Shown here piece by piece: positions 2,775 through 23,746 of a stretch of 64,000 nucleotides of DNA. The stretch covers positions 13,344-77,343 of the forward strand of contig CAYPKD010000007.1 in the NCBI GenBank assembly GCA_964411255.1, read 5' to 3'. The first letter of the stretch is position 1; the number at the start of each line of letters is the position of its first letter. Origin of the DNA: an uncultured Gammaproteobacteria bacterium (lineage in GTDB: Bacteria > Patescibacteriota > Patescibacteriia > UBA11705 > DATKZF01). The position numbers were made by a program, and so were the translations under genes. Below the pieces are notes generated by a model. The model was given only the letters and a program-made list of their open reading frames with translations, did no database searches and had not been told where the DNA came from.

Positions 2775-3536
2775 TTATACCCATTGTGCAGTCGCTAAAA
2801 TTGCGATTAAACAAACTGCACTTACTATTACAAAATTAATAATCTTTTTATTATTTAAATTCCCTAACAAAAAGTACCGAGACAACCCTGTCATCAGATA
2901 AAAGGCTACGGTCAAGATCAGAGCATTGATAAAAAAACTGGTTGGCAAATAATAAATCGCACTAAAAAGTTCGACCAACACAACAGCAATTGTAAAAACG
3001 AAAACATTGCTTTCCCTGAATTTTATTTTATTCACCCAAAACAGTTGATATGACAAAAGCATACAAACAGCCAGTACTGGAACAACCAAATATATTATTT
3101 TTACCTTTATAAAAATTATTAAGGCGTATATAAATGCGAAAAAAACAAAACAAACTATTAAATTCAAATACCATGAAAAATTTTCCAAAGAATACGGCTG
3201 ATATCTTTTCGGATAAAATTTGTAGTCTAATATTCTTCCTAAATATATAAATAGAAAAATGCTTACTGCGGCGGCAAACACATGATAGAACAAATTATTT
3301 TCAACAAACAGTACAAACGCTATGCAAGAACAAACATAAATCAAAGGACTGATTAAAAAACTAAAAAATTCGATATTTATTTTTTTTCTGGTAAATGACC
3401 ACAAAGTTAAAATCACCAAAACAACAACTATTGGTGAAATTATCCAGAGCCACTTCTCTTTATATATTAAAATTTCAAATGTTAGTAATAAAGAAAGCGG
3501 GGTCAAAAATTGCAGTAATTTGTTTAACAAAAACAT
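2775..3536 (-). CDS. polytopic integral membrane protein, hypothetical
   Basis: About 8 predicted TM helices; its stop abuts the HtrA start, suggesting an operon. Confidence 0.5.
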   Translation of the reverse strand: MFLLNKLLQFLTPLSLLLTFEILIYKEKWLWIISPIVVVLVILTLWSFTRKKINIEFFSFLISPLIYVCSCIAFVLFVENNLFYHVFAAAVSIFLFIYLGRILDYKFYPKRYQPYSLENFSWYLNLIVCFVFFAFIYALIIFIKVKIIYLVVPVLAVCMLLSYQLFWVNKIKFRESNVFVFTIAVVLVELFSAIYYLPTSFFINALILTVAFYLMTGLSRYFLLGNLNNKKIINFVIVSAVCLIAILATAQWV

Positions 3537-3538
3537 AA

Positions 3539-4591
3539 TTAACTATTTGGCTTGGCTTGTAATTTACCTAATGACTCTTTTTCTTCAAAAAGCTCCTTGA
3601 TGACAATACTGATAGCAGTCGCCACTGGAATGGCCAGTACTGCGCCAAGCACACCTCCTACTTTTGCGCCTATCAACAACGCCACTACACTTATAATTGG
3701 ATTAAGTCCCACTGCCTTTTGCATTATTTTCGGTACTAGCAAATGATTTTCAAGCTGTTGAATAATGACAAACAATATTAATACAAATAAAGCCTTTATC
3801 GGAGATTGCACAAATGCCAAAAATATCGCTGGGATAGCACTAATTACCGGACCAATATAGGGGATAAATTCTCCAATTGCAGCTATCAATGCTAGTACTA
3901 AAGCATATTTTACTCCTAATATCAATAGCCCGAAATATGACAAAATACCAATAATTAAACTCAGGATTAACTGGCCCTTTAACCAGGAACCGATTTTCTT
4001 TTGAATCTTATTAATTAACTGAACAGAAAAATCCTGATATTTTGCCGGCACTACAGAACGAGTGGTTCTCTTTATAGCATCTTCTTCTACTGTCATGTAA
4101 AAAGTGATGACTAAAATCAATAAAAATGAAAGCAAACCGCCAAAGATATTTGCTATAGTTGAAAAAATTCCTCCAACCGCACTGGTCAAGCCTGAGCTGA
4201 TAGCGCCCGCATTGTCCTGGCTTTGTTCAAATCCAAACCTGGAAGCATAATCCTGCACAAATGAAAAAGCCTCATTTACCCGATTAAAATACTGAGGCAC
4301 CTGGTCAGCTAATTCAGAAATCTGTTCTGCAATTGGCGGAATGATTAAAATAACAGCAGAACCAACCACGGCAATTGCCACTAAATAAATGATTAAAACG
4401 CTGACTCCGCGCGGGATCTTTTTATTTTGCAAATAATCTACCCAAGTATCAATGGCTGAAGCAAAAATTAAAGATACAAAAATTAGAGCTAATACATCCT
4501 TAATCAAATATAAAAAATACAACCCTAATATGACTAAGAAAAATTTCAAAATTGAAATAAATGAAATGCTAAAAGTTTTATAATTTTTCAT
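3539..4591 (-). CDS. AI-2E family transporter (PerM/YhhT-like)
   Basis: 350 aa, multi-TM, conserved C-terminal AI-2E block (GEFIPYIGPVISAIPAIFLAFVQSP). Confidence 0.75.
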   Translation of the reverse strand: MKNYKTFSISFISILKFFLVILGLYFLYLIKDVLALIFVSLIFASAIDTWVDYLQNKKIPRGVSVLIIYLVAIAVVGSAVILIIPPIAEQISELADQVPQYFNRVNEAFSFVQDYASRFGFEQSQDNAGAISSGLTSAVGGIFSTIANIFGGLLSFLLILVITFYMTVEEDAIKRTTRSVVPAKYQDFSVQLINKIQKKIGSWLKGQLILSLIIGILSYFGLLILGVKYALVLALIAAIGEFIPYIGPVISAIPAIFLAFVQSPIKALFVLILFVIIQQLENHLLVPKIMQKAVGLNPIISVVALLIGAKVGGVLGAVLAIPVATAISIVIKELFEEKESLGKLQAKPNS

Positions 4592-8352: not shown

Positions 8353-8805
8353 ATGAAAACGATTATAAACAAACAAGCAAGATTTGATTATGAGATCCTG
8401 GATAAATTCGAGGCTGGATTAGTATTAACAGGACCAGAAGTAAAATCTGTAAAAAATGGACAAATTAACCTAAAGGGATCATATGTAACTGTAAAACATG
8501 AACCAAAATCTGAAATTTATTTAATAAATGCACATATTTCAAAATACAAACCTGCAGGAGAGCAGCCAAAATATGAACCAACACGCTCAAGAAAATTGCT
8601 TTTGCATAAGAAGGAAATCAATAAATTATTGGGTATACTGCAGCAAAAAGGCTTGACATTAGCACCACTTCGGGTGTATACTAAGCACAATCGCATTAAA
8701 TTGGAATTTGGAGTTGGCAGAGGTAAAAAGAAATTTGAAAAAAAGGAATCAATGAAAAAAAGAGATACAAAACGCCAGATTCAAAGAGCGATGAAGCAAC
8801 ATTAA
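8353..8805 (+). CDS. smpB: SsrA-binding protein SmpB
   Basis: 150-aa SmpB-like sequence with basic C-tail; its cognate tmRNA gene lies immediately downstream. Confidence 0.9.
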   Translation: MKTIINKQARFDYEILDKFEAGLVLTGPEVKSVKNGQINLKGSYVTVKHEPKSEIYLINAHISKYKPAGEQPKYEPTRSRKLLLHKKEINKLLGILQQKGLTLAPLRVYTKHNRIKLEFGVGRGKKKFEKKESMKKRDTKRQIQRAMKQH

Positions 8806-8885
8806 ATCATAGATCATGGAACATGAATCATGGATCAAGGCAATTTTTTTGATCTATGATGTATGATACATGATACATGACTAAA
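8806..8885 (+). repeat. intergenic hairpin repeat, copy 1 (ATCATGGAACATGRATCAT family)
   Basis: 11-bp inverted repeat atcatagatca/tgatctatgat around an ATCATGG-rich core; a homologous copy follows rpmI. Confidence 0.55.
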
Positions 8886-9269
8886 GGGGATGATCGGCTT
8901 CGATGGGAATCAAAAATTATAAATGTGCGAATATGAGCTGCTAAATGCTCATTAAAACTTTGGCAATCAAATAAGTGCTAAAAATGTACTAGCAAAAGTA
9001 AAGAGCGCATTTGCTGCTCCAGCTTTTGCACCTGTTGTTGCTTAATAGCATACAACCGCTTATCTGCTGACACTCGATAGGTAGTATAAGCGCCATTATC
9101 GAGATAGGCTGTCTGGTGCCAGACTGGCAGTTGAAATTAACTTGGCTTTAGCTTATTAGGATTTTGTTTGTTTCTACCTTCTATGCTGAACTTATAAACA
9201 AACTACTTTTCGTAGAAGCATTTATAGTTTAATTTCCAGACGCGGGTTCAATTCCCGCCATCTCCACCA
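8886..9269 (+). ncRNA. ssrA: tmRNA (SsrA)
   Basis: 5' GGGGATGATCGGCTTCGATGGG pairs with 3' CATCTCC-ACCA to form an acceptor stem with a G3-U70 wobble; T-arm GCGGGTTCAATTCCCGC; internal tag ORF ends GCT TAA TAG; located right after smpB. Confidence 0.85.
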
Positions 9270-12517: not shown

Positions 12518-12546
12518 TTGACTTTCTAAATAAAATAAGATATAAT
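12518..12546 (+). promoter_or_regulatory. sigma70-like promoter (TTGACT-17-TATAAT) upstream of the tRNA-Asp locus
   Basis: Near-consensus hexamers with 17-nt spacer. Confidence 0.6.
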
Positions 12547-12586
12547 GTTAACGTCATTTTATTTATAAAACAAAATTTTGGTTGTT

Positions 12587-12666
12587 GGACCGGTGGTGTA
12601 GTTGGTTAATCCCGCACTAGAACTCCGTTCAGTGCGGGACAAGCACGCCGCACTGCCTGCCCCGCA
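12587..12666 (+). pseudogene. tRNA-Asp 5' pseudo-copy with hairpin insertion
   Basis: Shares upstream flank plus tRNA positions 1-21 with the intact gene, then a 30-nt hairpin (tcccgcact...agtgcggga), then cacgccgc (positions 22-31), then diverges. Confidence 0.5.
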
Positions 12667-12705
12667 TTTTTGATAATTTTTCTTACTTATAAAATTCTGG
12701 CTGTT

Positions 12706-12782
12706 GGACCGGTGGTGTAGTTGGTTAACACGCCGCCCTGTCACGGCGGAGATCGCGGGTTCGAGTCCCGTCCGGTCCGCCA
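12706..12782 (+). tRNA. tRNA-Asp (GTC)
   Basis: Cloverleaf checked by hand: acceptor GGACCGG/CCGGTCC, anticodon stem ccgcc/ggcgg, loop cuGUCac, T-arm GGTTCGAGTCC, encoded CCA. Confidence 0.9.
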
Positions 12783-12827
12783 GCCAGAATTTTATATTTT
12801 AAATCCTTTTTCATCAAATAGTGCGGG

Positions 12828-12870
12828 GTCACGGCGGAGATCGCGGATTCGAGTCCCGTCCGGTCCGCCA
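12828..12870 (+). pseudogene. tRNA-Asp 3' half pseudo-copy (positions 34-76) with duplicated downstream flank
   Basis: gtcacggcgg...ccgcca is identical to the intact gene except for one T-stem change, and is preceded by agtgcgggg complementary to the hairpin strand in the 5' pseudo-copy. Confidence 0.5.
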
Positions 12871-12959
12871 GCCAGAGTTTTGTTTTTTTGTACCTTTTTA
12901 AAAATGTTGTTATAATAAAAATACTTATATAATAATACTCTAATCAATAATAAAAACTT

Positions 12960-13235
12960 ATGAATCCAGCAGAAGCAATGCCAAAAGGAGAGGAATCTCC
13001 AATTGATAAATTCTGGGCTCTGCCAGAGGATAAGCAATTAGAAATAGCTGAACAAATCTTTGGTAAAAAAGACTTGGCAACCTTTGCTTATAACTGGGAC
13101 CAGGAACATGCGCCATTAGACTCTTATGAAAGGACAAAATTCGGCAAAGATTTACGAAGCGCTTTGCAATACATTAGGCAAAGAGAATTATTAAAAGACA
13201 AAACAAACAAACTGGAAGAGGCAATGTCAGAATAA
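12960..13235 (+). CDS. hypothetical small protein
   Basis: 91-aa ORF. Confidence 0.4.
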   Translation: MNPAEAMPKGEESPIDKFWALPEDKQLEIAEQIFGKKDLATFAYNWDQEHAPLDSYERTKFGKDLRSALQYIRQRELLKDKTNKLEEAMSE

Positions 13236-13651: not shown

Positions 13652-14797
13652 TTATTGTTGTCGTCGAATACCTTCCAGCATGCGAAAAGCTTTTTCCAGC
13701 ATCTCTGTCTGCTGATATGCCAAGCCTTGTTCCAAAGCTTTTGCCACAGGCACTGGTCTGACATTAAGCAAATCAGATTTTGATTTGATCAAATACTTCA
13801 AAGATCTGATGCTGCCATCATATATTGTCATAAAAGCCAGGCTTGATCCGCCCTGACTGCCAGCCAGATCTTCATCTGGTGTGCTAAACATATCAACAAA
13901 ATATAGATGAGCCGCCATTTTATCAATTTTTACCTGTGCTGGAATTGTATGATGAGTAATGATTTCCATTCTAATATTTGACTCTTCAAACAATTCTCTA
14001 CTAACTGAATCAATCGGACTTTCATAATCATCAATGCCACCACCAACGGTAGCCAGCATGTTTGCAAAATCTTTACCTGGCCGTCGATTGCCTAAAACAA
14101 CATTCCATTCAAATCCGTCAAAAACAAACATGAATACATCAACACATTGCCTGCCTGGTTCATAATTTACTTCTTTGCCCAGCACAGCATTGGTGATGGT
14201 ATAAAAGTCACCGCTATTAGCAATAAAAATCTTTGTACCTTCAGCAGCATATGTATTCCAAATCTCTACTTCATTATCACGGATTGCTTCACGCAGCCGG
14301 GTTGCACTAATGTCAATTGGATTTTTTACAATTTCACGTCCTACTTTTTCTAAATTATCGACTCTTTTGCCAAGAGCTTCAGTCACCCTGGGATTATCTG
14401 TAGCAATGGCATCAATTAAATCAAAATTCGGTATATTAAATACATATTCTCTCCAGGGCTCGTCCTGTTCAAAGTCAGGAATTGGCACAAAGATAAAGTC
14501 ATCAATTGGAATGCCTTCAAGCCGAAGCGATAAGGCCAGCATTGCCTGAACCTGAAAAACATGGATGGGATTATTTTTGTTCAAGGTATAGCATGACCCA
14601 TTACCAATCACTAATTTATAGCCTTTTTCCCAAAGGGCCTTTAAAAATGCAATATGTCCAATATGCGGCAGCTTTGCTCTACCTATCCATAAAACAATCT
14701 TGTGTTCTTGTTTTTTCCAGCCTTCAAGTATTTCAAATTTATCAATTGCTTGATTCATTTTTTCCTCCTGCTTGAATTTGATGTCAAATAACAACAT
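13652..14797 (-). CDS. bifunctional NMN adenylyltransferase / Nudix hydrolase (NadM-Nudix type)
   Basis: N-terminal cytidylyltransferase-fold HxGH motif (PHIGHIAF); C-terminal Nudix box GGGIDDYESPIDSVSRELFEESNI. Confidence 0.75.
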   Translation of the reverse strand: MLLFDIKFKQEEKMNQAIDKFEILEGWKKQEHKIVLWIGRAKLPHIGHIAFLKALWEKGYKLVIGNGSCYTLNKNNPIHVFQVQAMLALSLRLEGIPIDDFIFVPIPDFEQDEPWREYVFNIPNFDLIDAIATDNPRVTEALGKRVDNLEKVGREIVKNPIDISATRLREAIRDNEVEIWNTYAAEGTKIFIANSGDFYTITNAVLGKEVNYEPGRQCVDVFMFVFDGFEWNVVLGNRRPGKDFANMLATVGGGIDDYESPIDSVSRELFEESNIRMEIITHHTIPAQVKIDKMAAHLYFVDMFSTPDEDLAGSQGGSSLAFMTIYDGSIRSLKYLIKSKSDLLNVRPVPVAKALEQGLAYQQTEMLEKAFRMLEGIRRQQ

Positions 14798-22198: not shown

Positions 22199-23746
22199 TT
22201 GAAGCATTTCATAACTTTAGATGATTTTACTTTAGAAGAAATTCTACAAATAGTAGCTGATTCAATTGGCTATATTCCGTTTGCCTGGGAAAAAAGATTT
22301 CTGCCAAAAAAAGATAGACTATATGTTAATTTTAAAGATAAAATGGCATTGAAACTTATAATGATGCTCGAACCTACCAGCCGCACAGGATATTCAAATT
22401 GGCTAGGAGGGAAACTTAACCGGTTTGAAGTAATGATGCTAGCCGGCAAGGAAGCCCTGTCCCTGGCAAAATCTGAAAGCTTAGCAGATGCAGTGCGTAC
22501 CCATGCTGGCACTCAACGAGCAGATATTTTAGTATTAAGAACAAAATTTGAAGGCAGTGCAAGATTTGCCAAAGAAATTTTGGCAAAATCAGGCTATCAA
22601 TGCGCTGTGCACAATGCAGGAGATGGCGCAAATAGGCATCCGACGCAGGCTTTACTAAACCTGACAACAATCATGCACAAGCTGGGCAGACTCAATGACT
22701 TTACCATTGGCTTTTTCGGTGATTTAAAATATTCCAGAACTCTTAATTCAGACCTTGACGCTCTTCGCATATTAAATAATGAATATAGGAATATCAGAGT
22801 TATCACTGTTTGCGCTCCTGGCACAGGTATTCCAGATTATCGTCGGCAAGGGCTGGAAATTGAAGAATATGATTCATTTGACGCTTTCAGACAATGCGAT
22901 GTTATAAGCGGCATTAGAATTCAGCAAGAAAGATATACAGATCCAATGGAAAAAGCCAGAGTAATGGGCAAATTCATTTTAGGTTTGAAAATTCTTAATT
23001 CAATGAAAGACGATGTTGTAGTCATGCATCCTGGTCCTCGCGGCCCGGAAATTGACGCAGCGATTTCTCTAGACCCAAGAGTGGTAATGTGGGAACAAAT
23101 GTTTATTGGTGTGGCGACCAGAATGGCGCTGGACCGTTGGAGCTATAATCTGCTTGATGAAAAAACAACTTTTGATGATATTAAGCCTTGCCGAATTGAA
23201 GAAAAAGAAAAAGAACCAAATGAAGACAGATTGAAAAAAAGAGAGAAAGAAGGCAAAACTGATGAATATTTCAGGCCAATCCGCAGGCGAGGCACAATTA
23301 TCGATCATATTACATTAGGTCTGGGCGGACCTATAAAAAGAATTATGAAAAAATTCAATGGCGCTGAAGGCCAGGGCACTGTGCATTCAGTGGAAATTGA
23401 AGGAAGAAAAGATGTAATCGTGCTTCAGGGTAAATTTCCTAAGCCTTGGTTTAAAACTATCATTGAATTTTTAAATCCTAACACCACCTTTAACATCATA
23501 GATGAAGGCTGGTTTGAAAAACAAAAAGTCAGAATTTCAGGTGCTACTATGCCGAATGCTCTGACCTGTCCAAATCCAGTCTGCATTTCCAGAAATGAGG
23601 AAGAAGCTGAATCCAGTTTTACAGTTTGTCTTCGTACTTCAAAAGCAATGTGTGACAACTGCATGCGCGAATTCACCAGAGCTGAGATTATAAAAGCAAC
23701 TTTTGATATAAATGTAGAACAGCTTGAGCAAGCTAATGGGGAATAA
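22199..23746 (+). CDS. pyrB: aspartate carbamoyltransferase catalytic domain fused to a PyrI-like regulatory zinc domain
   Basis: Transcarbamylase motifs HPTQALLN and MHPGP with a divergent CP-binding motif (PTSRTG instead of STRTR); C-terminal 150 aa resemble PyrI (IDHI..., CPNPVCIS...C..C); TTG start with RBS. Confidence 0.7.
   Translation: MKHFITLDDFTLEEILQIVADSIGYIPFAWEKRFLPKKDRLYVNFKDKMALKLIMMLEPTSRTGYSNWLGGKLNRFEVMMLAGKEALSLAKSESLADAVRTHAGTQRADILVLRTKFEGSARFAKEILAKSGYQCAVHNAGDGANRHPTQALLNLTTIMHKLGRLNDFTIGFFGDLKYSRTLNSDLDALRILNNEYRNIRVITVCAPGTGIPDYRRQGLEIEEYDSFDAFRQCDVISGIRIQQERYTDPMEKARVMGKFILGLKILNSMKDDVVVMHPGPRGPEIDAAISLDPRVVMWEQMFIGVATRMALDRWSYNLLDEKTTFDDIKPCRIEEKEKEPNEDRLKKREKEGKTDEYFRPIRRRGTIIDHITLGLGGPIKRIMKKFNGAEGQGTVHSVEIEGRKDVIVLQGKFPKPWFKTIIEFLNPNTTFNIIDEGWFEKQKVRISGATMPNALTCPNPVCISRNEEEAESSFTVCLRTSKAMCDNCMREFTRAEIIKATFDINVEQLEQANGE

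Follow-up and report, generated by a model that had tools for sequence, protein, structure and literature searches.

A tRNA-Asp gene probably broken by two insertions, the larger of which carries an intact tRNA-Asp, in a patescibacterial genome

How does a bacterium come to carry an intact tRNA-Asp gene between the two halves of another one, and which of them serves the cell? The question is raised by a transfer RNA (tRNA) locus in a 64-kb stretch of DNA (contig CAYPKD010000007.1; hereafter the window, to which all positions refer unless another contig is named) from an uncultured bacterium. It is placed in the candidate phyla radiation (CPR)/Patescibacteria, i.e., the relatives found by a genome-collection scan through L20 are Parcubacteria/Moranbacteria-like metagenome-assembled genomes (MAGs). 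An original prediction, made from the letters alone, described three tRNA-Asp-derived pieces, a 5′ piece A, an intact gene B, and a 3′ piece C, together with a complementary 9-nt motif, and all of these are present where it placed them; it also called the overlapping open reading frames (ORFs) 12559..12744, 12721..12915, and 12792..13037 spurious, and they are indeed mechanically listed frames that are not called as genes on the ENA, JGI, or Logan contigs of the locus. Our answer, to which we give a probability of roughly 0.8, is that A and C together are the native tRNA-Asp gene, broken at the DNA level by two insertions after the split from a sister species, and that B is its replacement. 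This answer draws on the anatomy of the locus, the empty sites that the relatives show, an intact B beside a defective A and C, and the independent history of the flanks of B; expression of B by read-through and the mechanism of insertion are proposals that go with it.

The interrupted gene and the empty sites of related species

Among the collections scanned, only two other species carry the genes neighbouring the locus, and their contigs were used as comparison loci: L006 from a sister species (neighbour proteins 71–85% identical) and L092 from a third species (neighbour protein 42% identical). The original prediction had proposed a look at related genomes for an occupied or an empty integration site, and in both species the tRNA-Asp is uninterrupted, i.e., the site is empty. 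The sister species has one intact tRNA-Asp(GTC) in the same syntenic intergenic region, which measures 298 nt there and 505 nt in the window; the difference of 207 nt is accounted for by the two inserts of 34 and 173 nt. From the promoter through the leader into the first tRNA bases (12532–12602), this gene and the A side are 100% identical, and its trailer, gccagccaaagttttgtttttttt, is that of C. In the third species, a single intact tRNA-Asp stands behind the same promoter. Because the upstream flank of the intact relatives matches A and their downstream flank matches C, A and C represent the native gene and B arrived within it. The consensus promoter that had been noticed upstream of the pieces was found as described (Table 1) and lies at the same distance from the gene in both relatives, and a promoter search of the locus gave no comparable plus-strand site between A and C.

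Piece A is the 5′ part of the native gene, in two segments. It had been taken for a 5′ pseudo-copy of tRNA positions 1–21 and 22–31 separated by a 30-nt hairpin insert; the kind of structure stands, but the insert lies between positions 22 and 23 and A extends to position 34. The insert is made of a near-perfect 30-nt palindromic hairpin with the arms L1 (TCCCGCACT) and R1 (AGTGCGGGA), which are complementary at 9 of 9 positions (−19.7 kcal/mol, z −6.4), followed by CAAG. An alternative alignment of the second segment reads positions 23–30, an extra ACTG, and positions 31–34 at 12656–12659. Within this segment CCGCACTG (12648–12655), the anticodon-stem strand that carries the C31A change, is the exact reverse complement of CAGTGCGG (12630–12637), and templating, instead of random decay, may therefore account for C31A.

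Piece C is, as predicted, a 3′ pseudo-copy of positions 34–76 plus the downstream flank, directly preceded by AGTGCGGGG; please note that the last G of this motif could equally be counted as G34, and Table 1 starts C at position 35. From G34 to its 3′ flank (12828–12899), C is 89% identical to B over 72 nt, and A, from its 5′ flank through position 22 (12572–12609), shares 95% identity with the corresponding 38 nt of B. Between A and B, and likewise between B and C, the flanks, which had been described as the same, are similar without being identical. G53 is present in B and in both relatives and A53 only in C, where the pair concerned, G53–C61, is near-universal in tRNAs. Among the four gene versions (A/C, B, and those of the sister and the third species), the only unpaired stem positions are A31·G39 and A53·C61, both in A/C. 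The flank of C differs from that of the sister species by a single change, A to G at 12875, which retains a G·U pair. After manual joining of A and C, a tRNA-Asp is called by ARAGORN only once the D-arm insert has been taken out as well. We regard A and C as likely relics of the native gene that have started to decay, and the whole arrangement is probably a mere scar.

The larger insert sits inside the anticodon and holds B. Its core of 169 nt (12660–12828) has ends set exactly by inverted repeats, i.e., CCCCGCA...TGCGGGG lengthened by TTTGAT/ATCAAA, and four extra bases to the left, read as ACTG or CCTG depending on the alignment, give a size range of 169–173 nt. The GC-rich motif at these ends occurs four times at the locus in alternating orientation (L1, 12610–12618; R1, 12631–12639; L2, 12660–12668; R2, 12820–12828), and any adjacent pair of the four can form a hairpin. 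AGTGCGGGR is found three times in the 64 kb, always at this locus, where 0.2 occurrences are expected and 0 of 100 shuffles reached three. We walked about 10 kb beyond each end of the window, which brings the genome covered to 84 kb: there were no further copies of the GC motif in the 84 kb, and beyond the window neither paired shorter motif words, nor an insert, nor additional tRNAs. The 9-nt complementarity between the strand in A and the leader AGTGCGGGG of C is borne out, and it is the product of the inverted-repeat ends of the two inserts. C's leader has a second complement that is appropriate in position, CCCCGCAtttttgat (12660–12674, just after position 34 of A), which pairs with atcaaatagTGCGGGG (12813–12828).

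The two ends of the cassette, if rejoined, fold as an A-run, a hairpin, and a T-run (−13.9 kcal/mol), similar to the native terminator of the third species (−14.6 kcal/mol), which has the same relative place. The ends look like two halves of one intrinsic terminator, and the cassette looks like a circular permutation of a "tRNA-Asp gene plus terminator". Local alignment of the non-tRNA segments of the inserts with the native intergenic region, on both strands, was no better than with shuffles, so these segments are not obviously copied from local sequence. Rfam at E values up to 10 returned B and tRNA-derived noise only. A bacterial tRNA group I intron was also considered and rejected: no Rfam intron hit falls in the anticodon insert, which is mostly tRNA B.

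Table 1. Features of the tRNA-Asp locus (window positions)
Feature	Position	Strand	Remarks
Native sigma-70-like promoter, TTGACT-17-TATAAT	12518..12546	+	11/12 consensus positions; upstream of A
Native 5′ leader strand of the leader-trailer stem	12568..12584	+	pairs with 12869–12885 in the minimum free energy (MFE) fold; identical in L006
Piece A, first segment (A1), native tRNA-Asp positions 1–22	12587..12609	+	contiguous with native flank
D-arm insert, 34 nt, between A22 and C23	12610..12643	+	absent from L006 and L092
Piece A, second segment (A2), native tRNA-Asp positions 23–34	12644..12655	+	C31 to A at 12652; 11/12 identical to B
Large insert inside the anticodon, between G34 and U35, 173 nt	12656..12828	+	absent from L006 and L092
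Left inverted repeat L2, CCCCGCA + TTTTTGAT	12660..12674	+	resembles descending arm of a terminator + T-run
B's own 5′ leader strand	12688..12703	+	pairs with 12781–12796
Piece B, intact tRNA-Asp(GTC), CCA encoded	12706..12782	+	ARAGORN, Rfam
B's own 3′ trailer strand, including C75-A76 of the encoded CCA	12781..12796	+	leader-trailer stem
Right inverted repeat R2, ATCAAAT + AGTGCGGGG	12813..12828	+	resembles A-rich lead-in + ascending arm of a terminator
Piece C, native tRNA-Asp positions 35–76	12829..12870	+	G53 to A at 12847; direct repeat of B
Native 3′ trailer strand (12869–12885) + T-run	12869..12891	+	MFE pairs; matches L006 trailer

The intact copy, its expression and its history

B was predicted to be an intact tRNA-Asp(GTC), and the proposed ARAGORN run calls B as the sole tRNA of the locus; Rfam agrees (69.8 bits). 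All of its stems are paired, and its body matches the genes of both relatives apart from one T in the D loop. B has flanks of its own type, TTATAAAATTCTGGCTGTT and GCCAGAATTTTATATTTTAAAT; 37 nt lie between its trailer and C, and C begins 46 nt after B. B is the only canonical tRNA at the locus and appears to be the functional copy.

Most likely, B supplies the tRNA-Asp of the cell and is read through from the native promoter upstream of A. The only other promoter-like site ahead of B is a weak GATAAT (12672–12677), and since nothing else precedes B, the native promoter is probably the one used. Transcription would give a nested precursor of about 330 nt, from which B would be released by RNase P cleavage and ordinary 3′ trimming, with A and C co-transcribed as by-products. 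A terminator-like hairpin, R1:L2, lies in front of B (12631–12668; 13 positions, 11 bp, −17.2 kcal/mol); its loop consists of tRNA positions 25–32, and U5 follows (to 12672). R1:L2 and the more stable L1:R1 (−19.7 kcal/mol) exclude each other in an attenuator-like geometry, in which L1:R1, formed first, would pre-empt the terminator.

Every tRNA-Asp version compared here has a stem of 14–17 bp in which the 5′ leader pairs with C75-A76 of the encoded CCA and with the 3′ trailer, stacked on the acceptor stem and followed by a T-run (A/C and B in the window; L006, ~1167–1283; L092, ~4005–4125). The more distant Parcubacteria are without it and have ordinary hairpin terminators instead. Bacterial pre-tRNAs do not usually show such a conserved pairing of the leader with the CCA end and trailer, which is of relevance to tRNA processing and termination in reduced genomes; the stem may serve either of the two.

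It is also this stem that speaks about the past of B. Compared with the native stem, 5 of 16 pairs differ in B with pairing kept. With three gene versions, three pairs have both bases changed, two of these when B is compared with the native A/C stem of the window, and the addition of the third species (four versions) gives four such pairs, one of which occurs as C-G, G-C, and U-A; slid controls lost the covariation signal. Over 71 nt of the native 5′ side, the window and the sister species have 0 differences, and the leader of B differs from the native one at 4 of 18. The 3′ flank of B aligns further with the flank of the third species than that of C does. Given compensatory changes in the stem and native flanks that stay the same from one species to the other, a recent tandem duplication is not the origin of B. 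On this comparative evidence, B was for some time a functional tRNA-Asp gene of the clade that evolved independently; it is an old paralogue, or else it was copied from a related lineage.

Several points weigh against a native gene broken by insertion and replaced by B. The A-B-C arrangement has been seen in one species, so that a single occupied genome is known. A and B (12601–12608 and 12720–12727) share a D loop that is one T shorter (TTGG) than in both relatives (TTTGG), a hint at parallel loss or at gene conversion between the two neighbouring copies, one of which would be needed if B is foreign. A and C hold just two substitutions, and such slight decay can also be read as recent insertion or as continuing constraint. 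Read-through past R1:L2 and its U5 is assumed from L1:R1 being more stable and forming first. No target-site duplication, common core, integrase, or transposase was found by which the insertion mechanism might be identified. Finally, no donor with B-type flanks appeared among the viral contigs or in the metagenome scan, collections that cover the clade poorly. Briefly, the viral-contig scans gave nothing for both flank types or for the 3′ half, and the hairpin-in-tRNA pattern had only chance hits in high-GC phages; BLAST against GenBank phages gave generic tRNA-Asp similarity only; the flank-tolerant metagenome scan returned the sister-species contig alone and missed the JGI contig that holds the locus, i.e., that collection is incomplete for this purpose; and the genome-collection scan through L20 found only single ordinary tRNA-Asp genes, with no close relative and no B-type flank.

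Routes of insertion and competing explanations

Pfam scans covered about 50 ORFs of at least 120 aa in the window plus a few smaller ones near the locus, and gene calls covered roughly 20 kb in total beyond the window. There was no integrase, transposase, RNA ligase, or splicing endonuclease among the ~50 window ORFs and no integrase in the ~20 kb beyond. The junctions fit neither tyrosine- nor serine-recombinase geometry (common core, central dinucleotide) nor a target-site duplication; there are only one-sided, imperfect 4-nt tandem copies, ACTG/CCTG left of the large insert and CAAG/CACG right of the small one. As our preferred but tentative proposal, at odds clearly below even, a unit made of a tRNA-Asp gene plus its terminator, small circular or tandem, would have come from a related lineage or its mobile element, been opened in the terminator loop, and been captured at a break in the anticodon loop. 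The two terminator halves would thereby have turned into terminal inverted repeats (TIRs), and fold-back duplications would then have given the small D-arm hairpin. A TIR-bounded mobile cassette is a possible but doubtful alternative mechanism, and a stripped remnant of an element that uses the logic of tRNA-dependent lysogeny is doubtful to the same degree.

Rather unlikely, in our assessment, is the further step that the 169-bp unit is a minimal selfish replacement cassette. It would enter the anticodon of the resident tRNA-Asp, destroy the gene, and supply its own copy so that the host could not lose it, and the 34-nt hairpin would be a second, empty copy of the element; the logic of tRNA-dependent lysogeny would here be stripped down to one tRNA gene with two hairpin arms. 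The same low probability includes a weaker variant, a functional nested precursor, in which the pairing of A with C would be retained as a promoter-proximal leader plus a terminal stem/terminator for expressing B. If the cassette is mobile, it would be the smallest known element made indispensable by replacing the essential gene that it destroys.

The original prediction also offered a scar of integration and excision in the anticodon loop, and this comes closest to the truth, as the relatives have the uninterrupted gene with the flanks of A and C; what does not hold is a classical integrase scar, since the flanks of B are foreign and no element body, integrase, or core is found. In the classical account, an island or prophage would have entered the anticodon loop and regenerated the gene by means of a 3′ half that it brought along, the element would later have been deleted, and C would be the displaced 3′ fragment. 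Williams reportedly distinguished, in 2002, sublocation classes of integration in tRNA genes. Piece C does run from the anticodon loop through the 3′ end and the native flank, in direct orientation and close behind B. A displaced tDNA fragment of this geometry is standard for island integration according to the Islander description (PMC4383910), and anticodon-loop cores are described as common (PMC10865867). Also, a stretch of foreign composition lies beside the tRNA-Asp of the third species. However, an attachment-site (att) scar would keep the native 5′ half and 5′ flank in the regenerated gene, whereas the flanks of B are non-native on either side and it is A that holds the displaced native 5′ half. 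The junctions, ...CACTG/CCTGCCCCGCA on the left and ...GTGCGGGG/TCACGG on the right, share at most one base and hence no common core, the short spacer between the trailer of B and C holds no element body, and no integrase was found in the ORFs and gene calls described above. We consider a classical att scar quite unlikely.

It is very unlikely that A and C, as separate transcripts or in one long precursor that keeps B in an intron-like loop, come together as a second working tRNA-Asp, ligated or not. Several structural features nevertheless fit the resemblance to split-tRNA halves, which the original prediction saw in the leader/trailer complementarity. In the MFE structure of 12565–12885 (321 nt; −155.4 kcal/mol, z −10.8), one cloverleaf encloses another: the leader and acceptor strand of A pair with those of C, and the loop inside holds B together with its own stem. 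A and C also form a stable two-piece cofold (−102 kcal/mol), and a duplex of the A trailer and C leader (CCCCGCA/TGCGGGG), with 22 bp and three 1-nt bulges, abuts the junction. The joined A+C, without its D-arm insert, is still called a tRNA-Asp by ARAGORN, and the sole change in the flank of C preserves a G·U pair. But the pairing is mostly inherited, i.e., A pairs with C in the acceptor stem and in the leader-trailer stem because both once were one gene, and the intact B between the halves makes them unnecessary. The relatives manage with a single plain gene. G53A breaks G53–C61, C31A breaks the 31–39 pair, and the D stem is interrupted by 34 nt, which has to be removed before ARAGORN finds a tRNA. 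The junction at 34/35 is within the anticodon and not at 37/38; 7 nt on one strand and 4 nt on the other separate the anticodon stem from the trailer/leader helix, so that no bulge-helix-bulge (BHB; 3-4-3) can be drawn, and no exon-exon helix lies alongside the D-arm insert. C has no promoter of its own, the sole plus-strand promoter-like site before it lying upstream of A, and no EndA or RtcB-like gene occurs among the window ORFs scanned or in the gene calls beyond the window. Functional split halves are therefore not supported.

Highly improbable is a serial tandem duplication, also named in the original prediction, in which three native copies arose and copy 1 then lost its 3′ part and copy 3 its 5′ part. 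The direct orientation of A, B, and C with their similar flanks and the shorter D loop common to A and B would agree with it. The leader and trailer of B, however, carry compensatory differences that need time under selection, and the flanks of B diverge far more from the native flanks than the native flanks, identical between two species, do from each other. Column 106 of B retains the state of the outgroup species, and a duplication leaves the GC-rich inverted repeats exactly at the junctions and the D-arm hairpin unexplained.

An assembly artefact, i.e., a collapsed repeat or a mis-join, which might be suspected because the Logan short-read contigs end (12750–12762) or begin (12733) inside B, in the stretch repeated in C, is of negligible probability, since the 501-nt locus is 100% identical in two long contigs from separate assemblies (ENA ERZ27256770 and JGI 3300018080), Logan contigs from four further runs reach the locus from both sides, overlap in B, and are otherwise identical, and each of A, B, and C has unique diagnostic differences. 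A protein that neighbours the locus has an identical sequence on 11 public contigs. The A-B-C arrangement is reproduced base for base in at least six independent datasets; it is real and unusual. Relatives with a single simple tRNA-Asp and fragments of artefactual origin had been named together as speaking against the original prediction; the former were found, and the fragments are not artefactual. A NUDIX-domain gene (13652–14797; compared with L001 3697–4803) encodes 381 aa in the window and in the JGI contig and 368 aa in the ENA contig, from which strain-level variants of the species exist; the tRNA locus is nonetheless identical in all of them.

Other features of the window and of the comparison contigs are mentioned here for completeness. 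The genes for SmpB, transfer-messenger RNA (tmRNA), IF3, and L20 all lie upstream of the tRNA-Asp locus: SmpB is directly followed by the tmRNA gene (8353–9269; tag AKNVLAKVKSAFAAPAFAPVVA), a pair that occurs with the same tag in the sister species, and IF3-L35-L20 is just downstream of it. One ORF of 515 aa (22199–23746) has the aspartate carbamoyltransferase catalytic and regulatory-chain (PyrI) domains and appears to be a PyrB-PyrI fusion. In the third species, just past the intact tRNA-Asp and its terminator (L092, ~3300–3960; also in contig L093), about 0.9 kb has 47–48% GC against a background of ~35%. A AATTAAGATGAAAGT..GCCCTGAAC hairpin motif is repeated in this stretch, which also holds three small ORFs that have no Pfam hits and resembles foreign DNA acquired in the same intergenic region.

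Comparison with known systems

Like the scars of islands and prophages (Islander, PMC4383910), the locus has, downstream of an intact copy and in direct orientation, a displaced 3′ fragment whose start is in the anticodon loop. Unlike in those scars, the intact copy is without the native 5′ half or flank, a 5′ fragment is left as well, and no island lies between. The closest known logic is that of tRNA-dependent lysogeny in actinobacteriophages, in which insertion destroys the host tRNA gene and a tRNA from the phage, matching in isotype, compensates (Guerrero-Bustamante & Hatfull 2024, PMC10865867). Here too, A and C are not rebuilt, a complete tRNA-Asp(GTC) of the same isotype is inside the insert, and loss of the insert would be harmful. 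The phage system, however, involves a whole prophage with a tyrosine integrase, arm sites, a common core of ~10 bp, and a tRNA elsewhere in the phage (PMC10865867), whereas our insert measures 169–173 bp, contains little beyond the tRNA, and has inverted-repeat ends with no phage, integrase, or core; no prophage was found, and viral contigs and GenBank phages match by generic tRNA-Asp similarity only. A third likeness is to miniature inverted-repeat transposable elements (MITEs) and palindromic TIR elements: 169 bp, exact terminal inverted repeats (12660–12674 versus 12813–12828), and a much smaller second copy of the ends nearby. In contrast to MITEs, there is no target-site duplication, there are no other copies in the 84 kb, and the cargo is a whole tRNA gene.

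Archaeal split and tri-split tRNAs, as in Nanoarchaeum and Caldivirga, have GC-rich complementarity between trailer and leader, a BHB motif, a promoter for each half, and EndA plus an RtcB-type ligase; their halves are the sole source of the tRNA concerned, and the joined product is canonical. In common with them, the locus has, behind its 5′ half, a GC-rich trailer that is complementary to the leader of the 3′ half, and a similar two-piece cloverleaf is predicted. It differs from them in its bacterial host (tmRNA, SmpB), in its adjacent halves within one transcription unit and the intact gene between them, in its junction at 34/35 with no BHB, in the defects of both halves, and in the unsplit gene of the relatives. 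A case in which foreign DNA entered a tRNA gene is the tRNA-Thr of Caldiarchaeum subterraneum, where the insertion left, upstream of an intact copy, a 5′ tRNA fragment (Sugahara et al. 2012, PMC3293823); from a population or lineage comparison, it was proposed as a route to disrupted tRNA genes (PMC3293823). The insert there is a 1.8-kb recombinase-encoding element in an archaeon with splicing machinery, and here it is a tiny non-coding cassette in a bacterium. The empty sites of the relatives serve as a control and show a route from a bacterial tRNA gene to split-like halves with complementary leader and trailer, apparently by one or two DNA insertions. Such mimicry of archaeal split tRNAs is a warning for automated annotation and, at the same time, a concrete model for the origin of disrupted tRNA genes.

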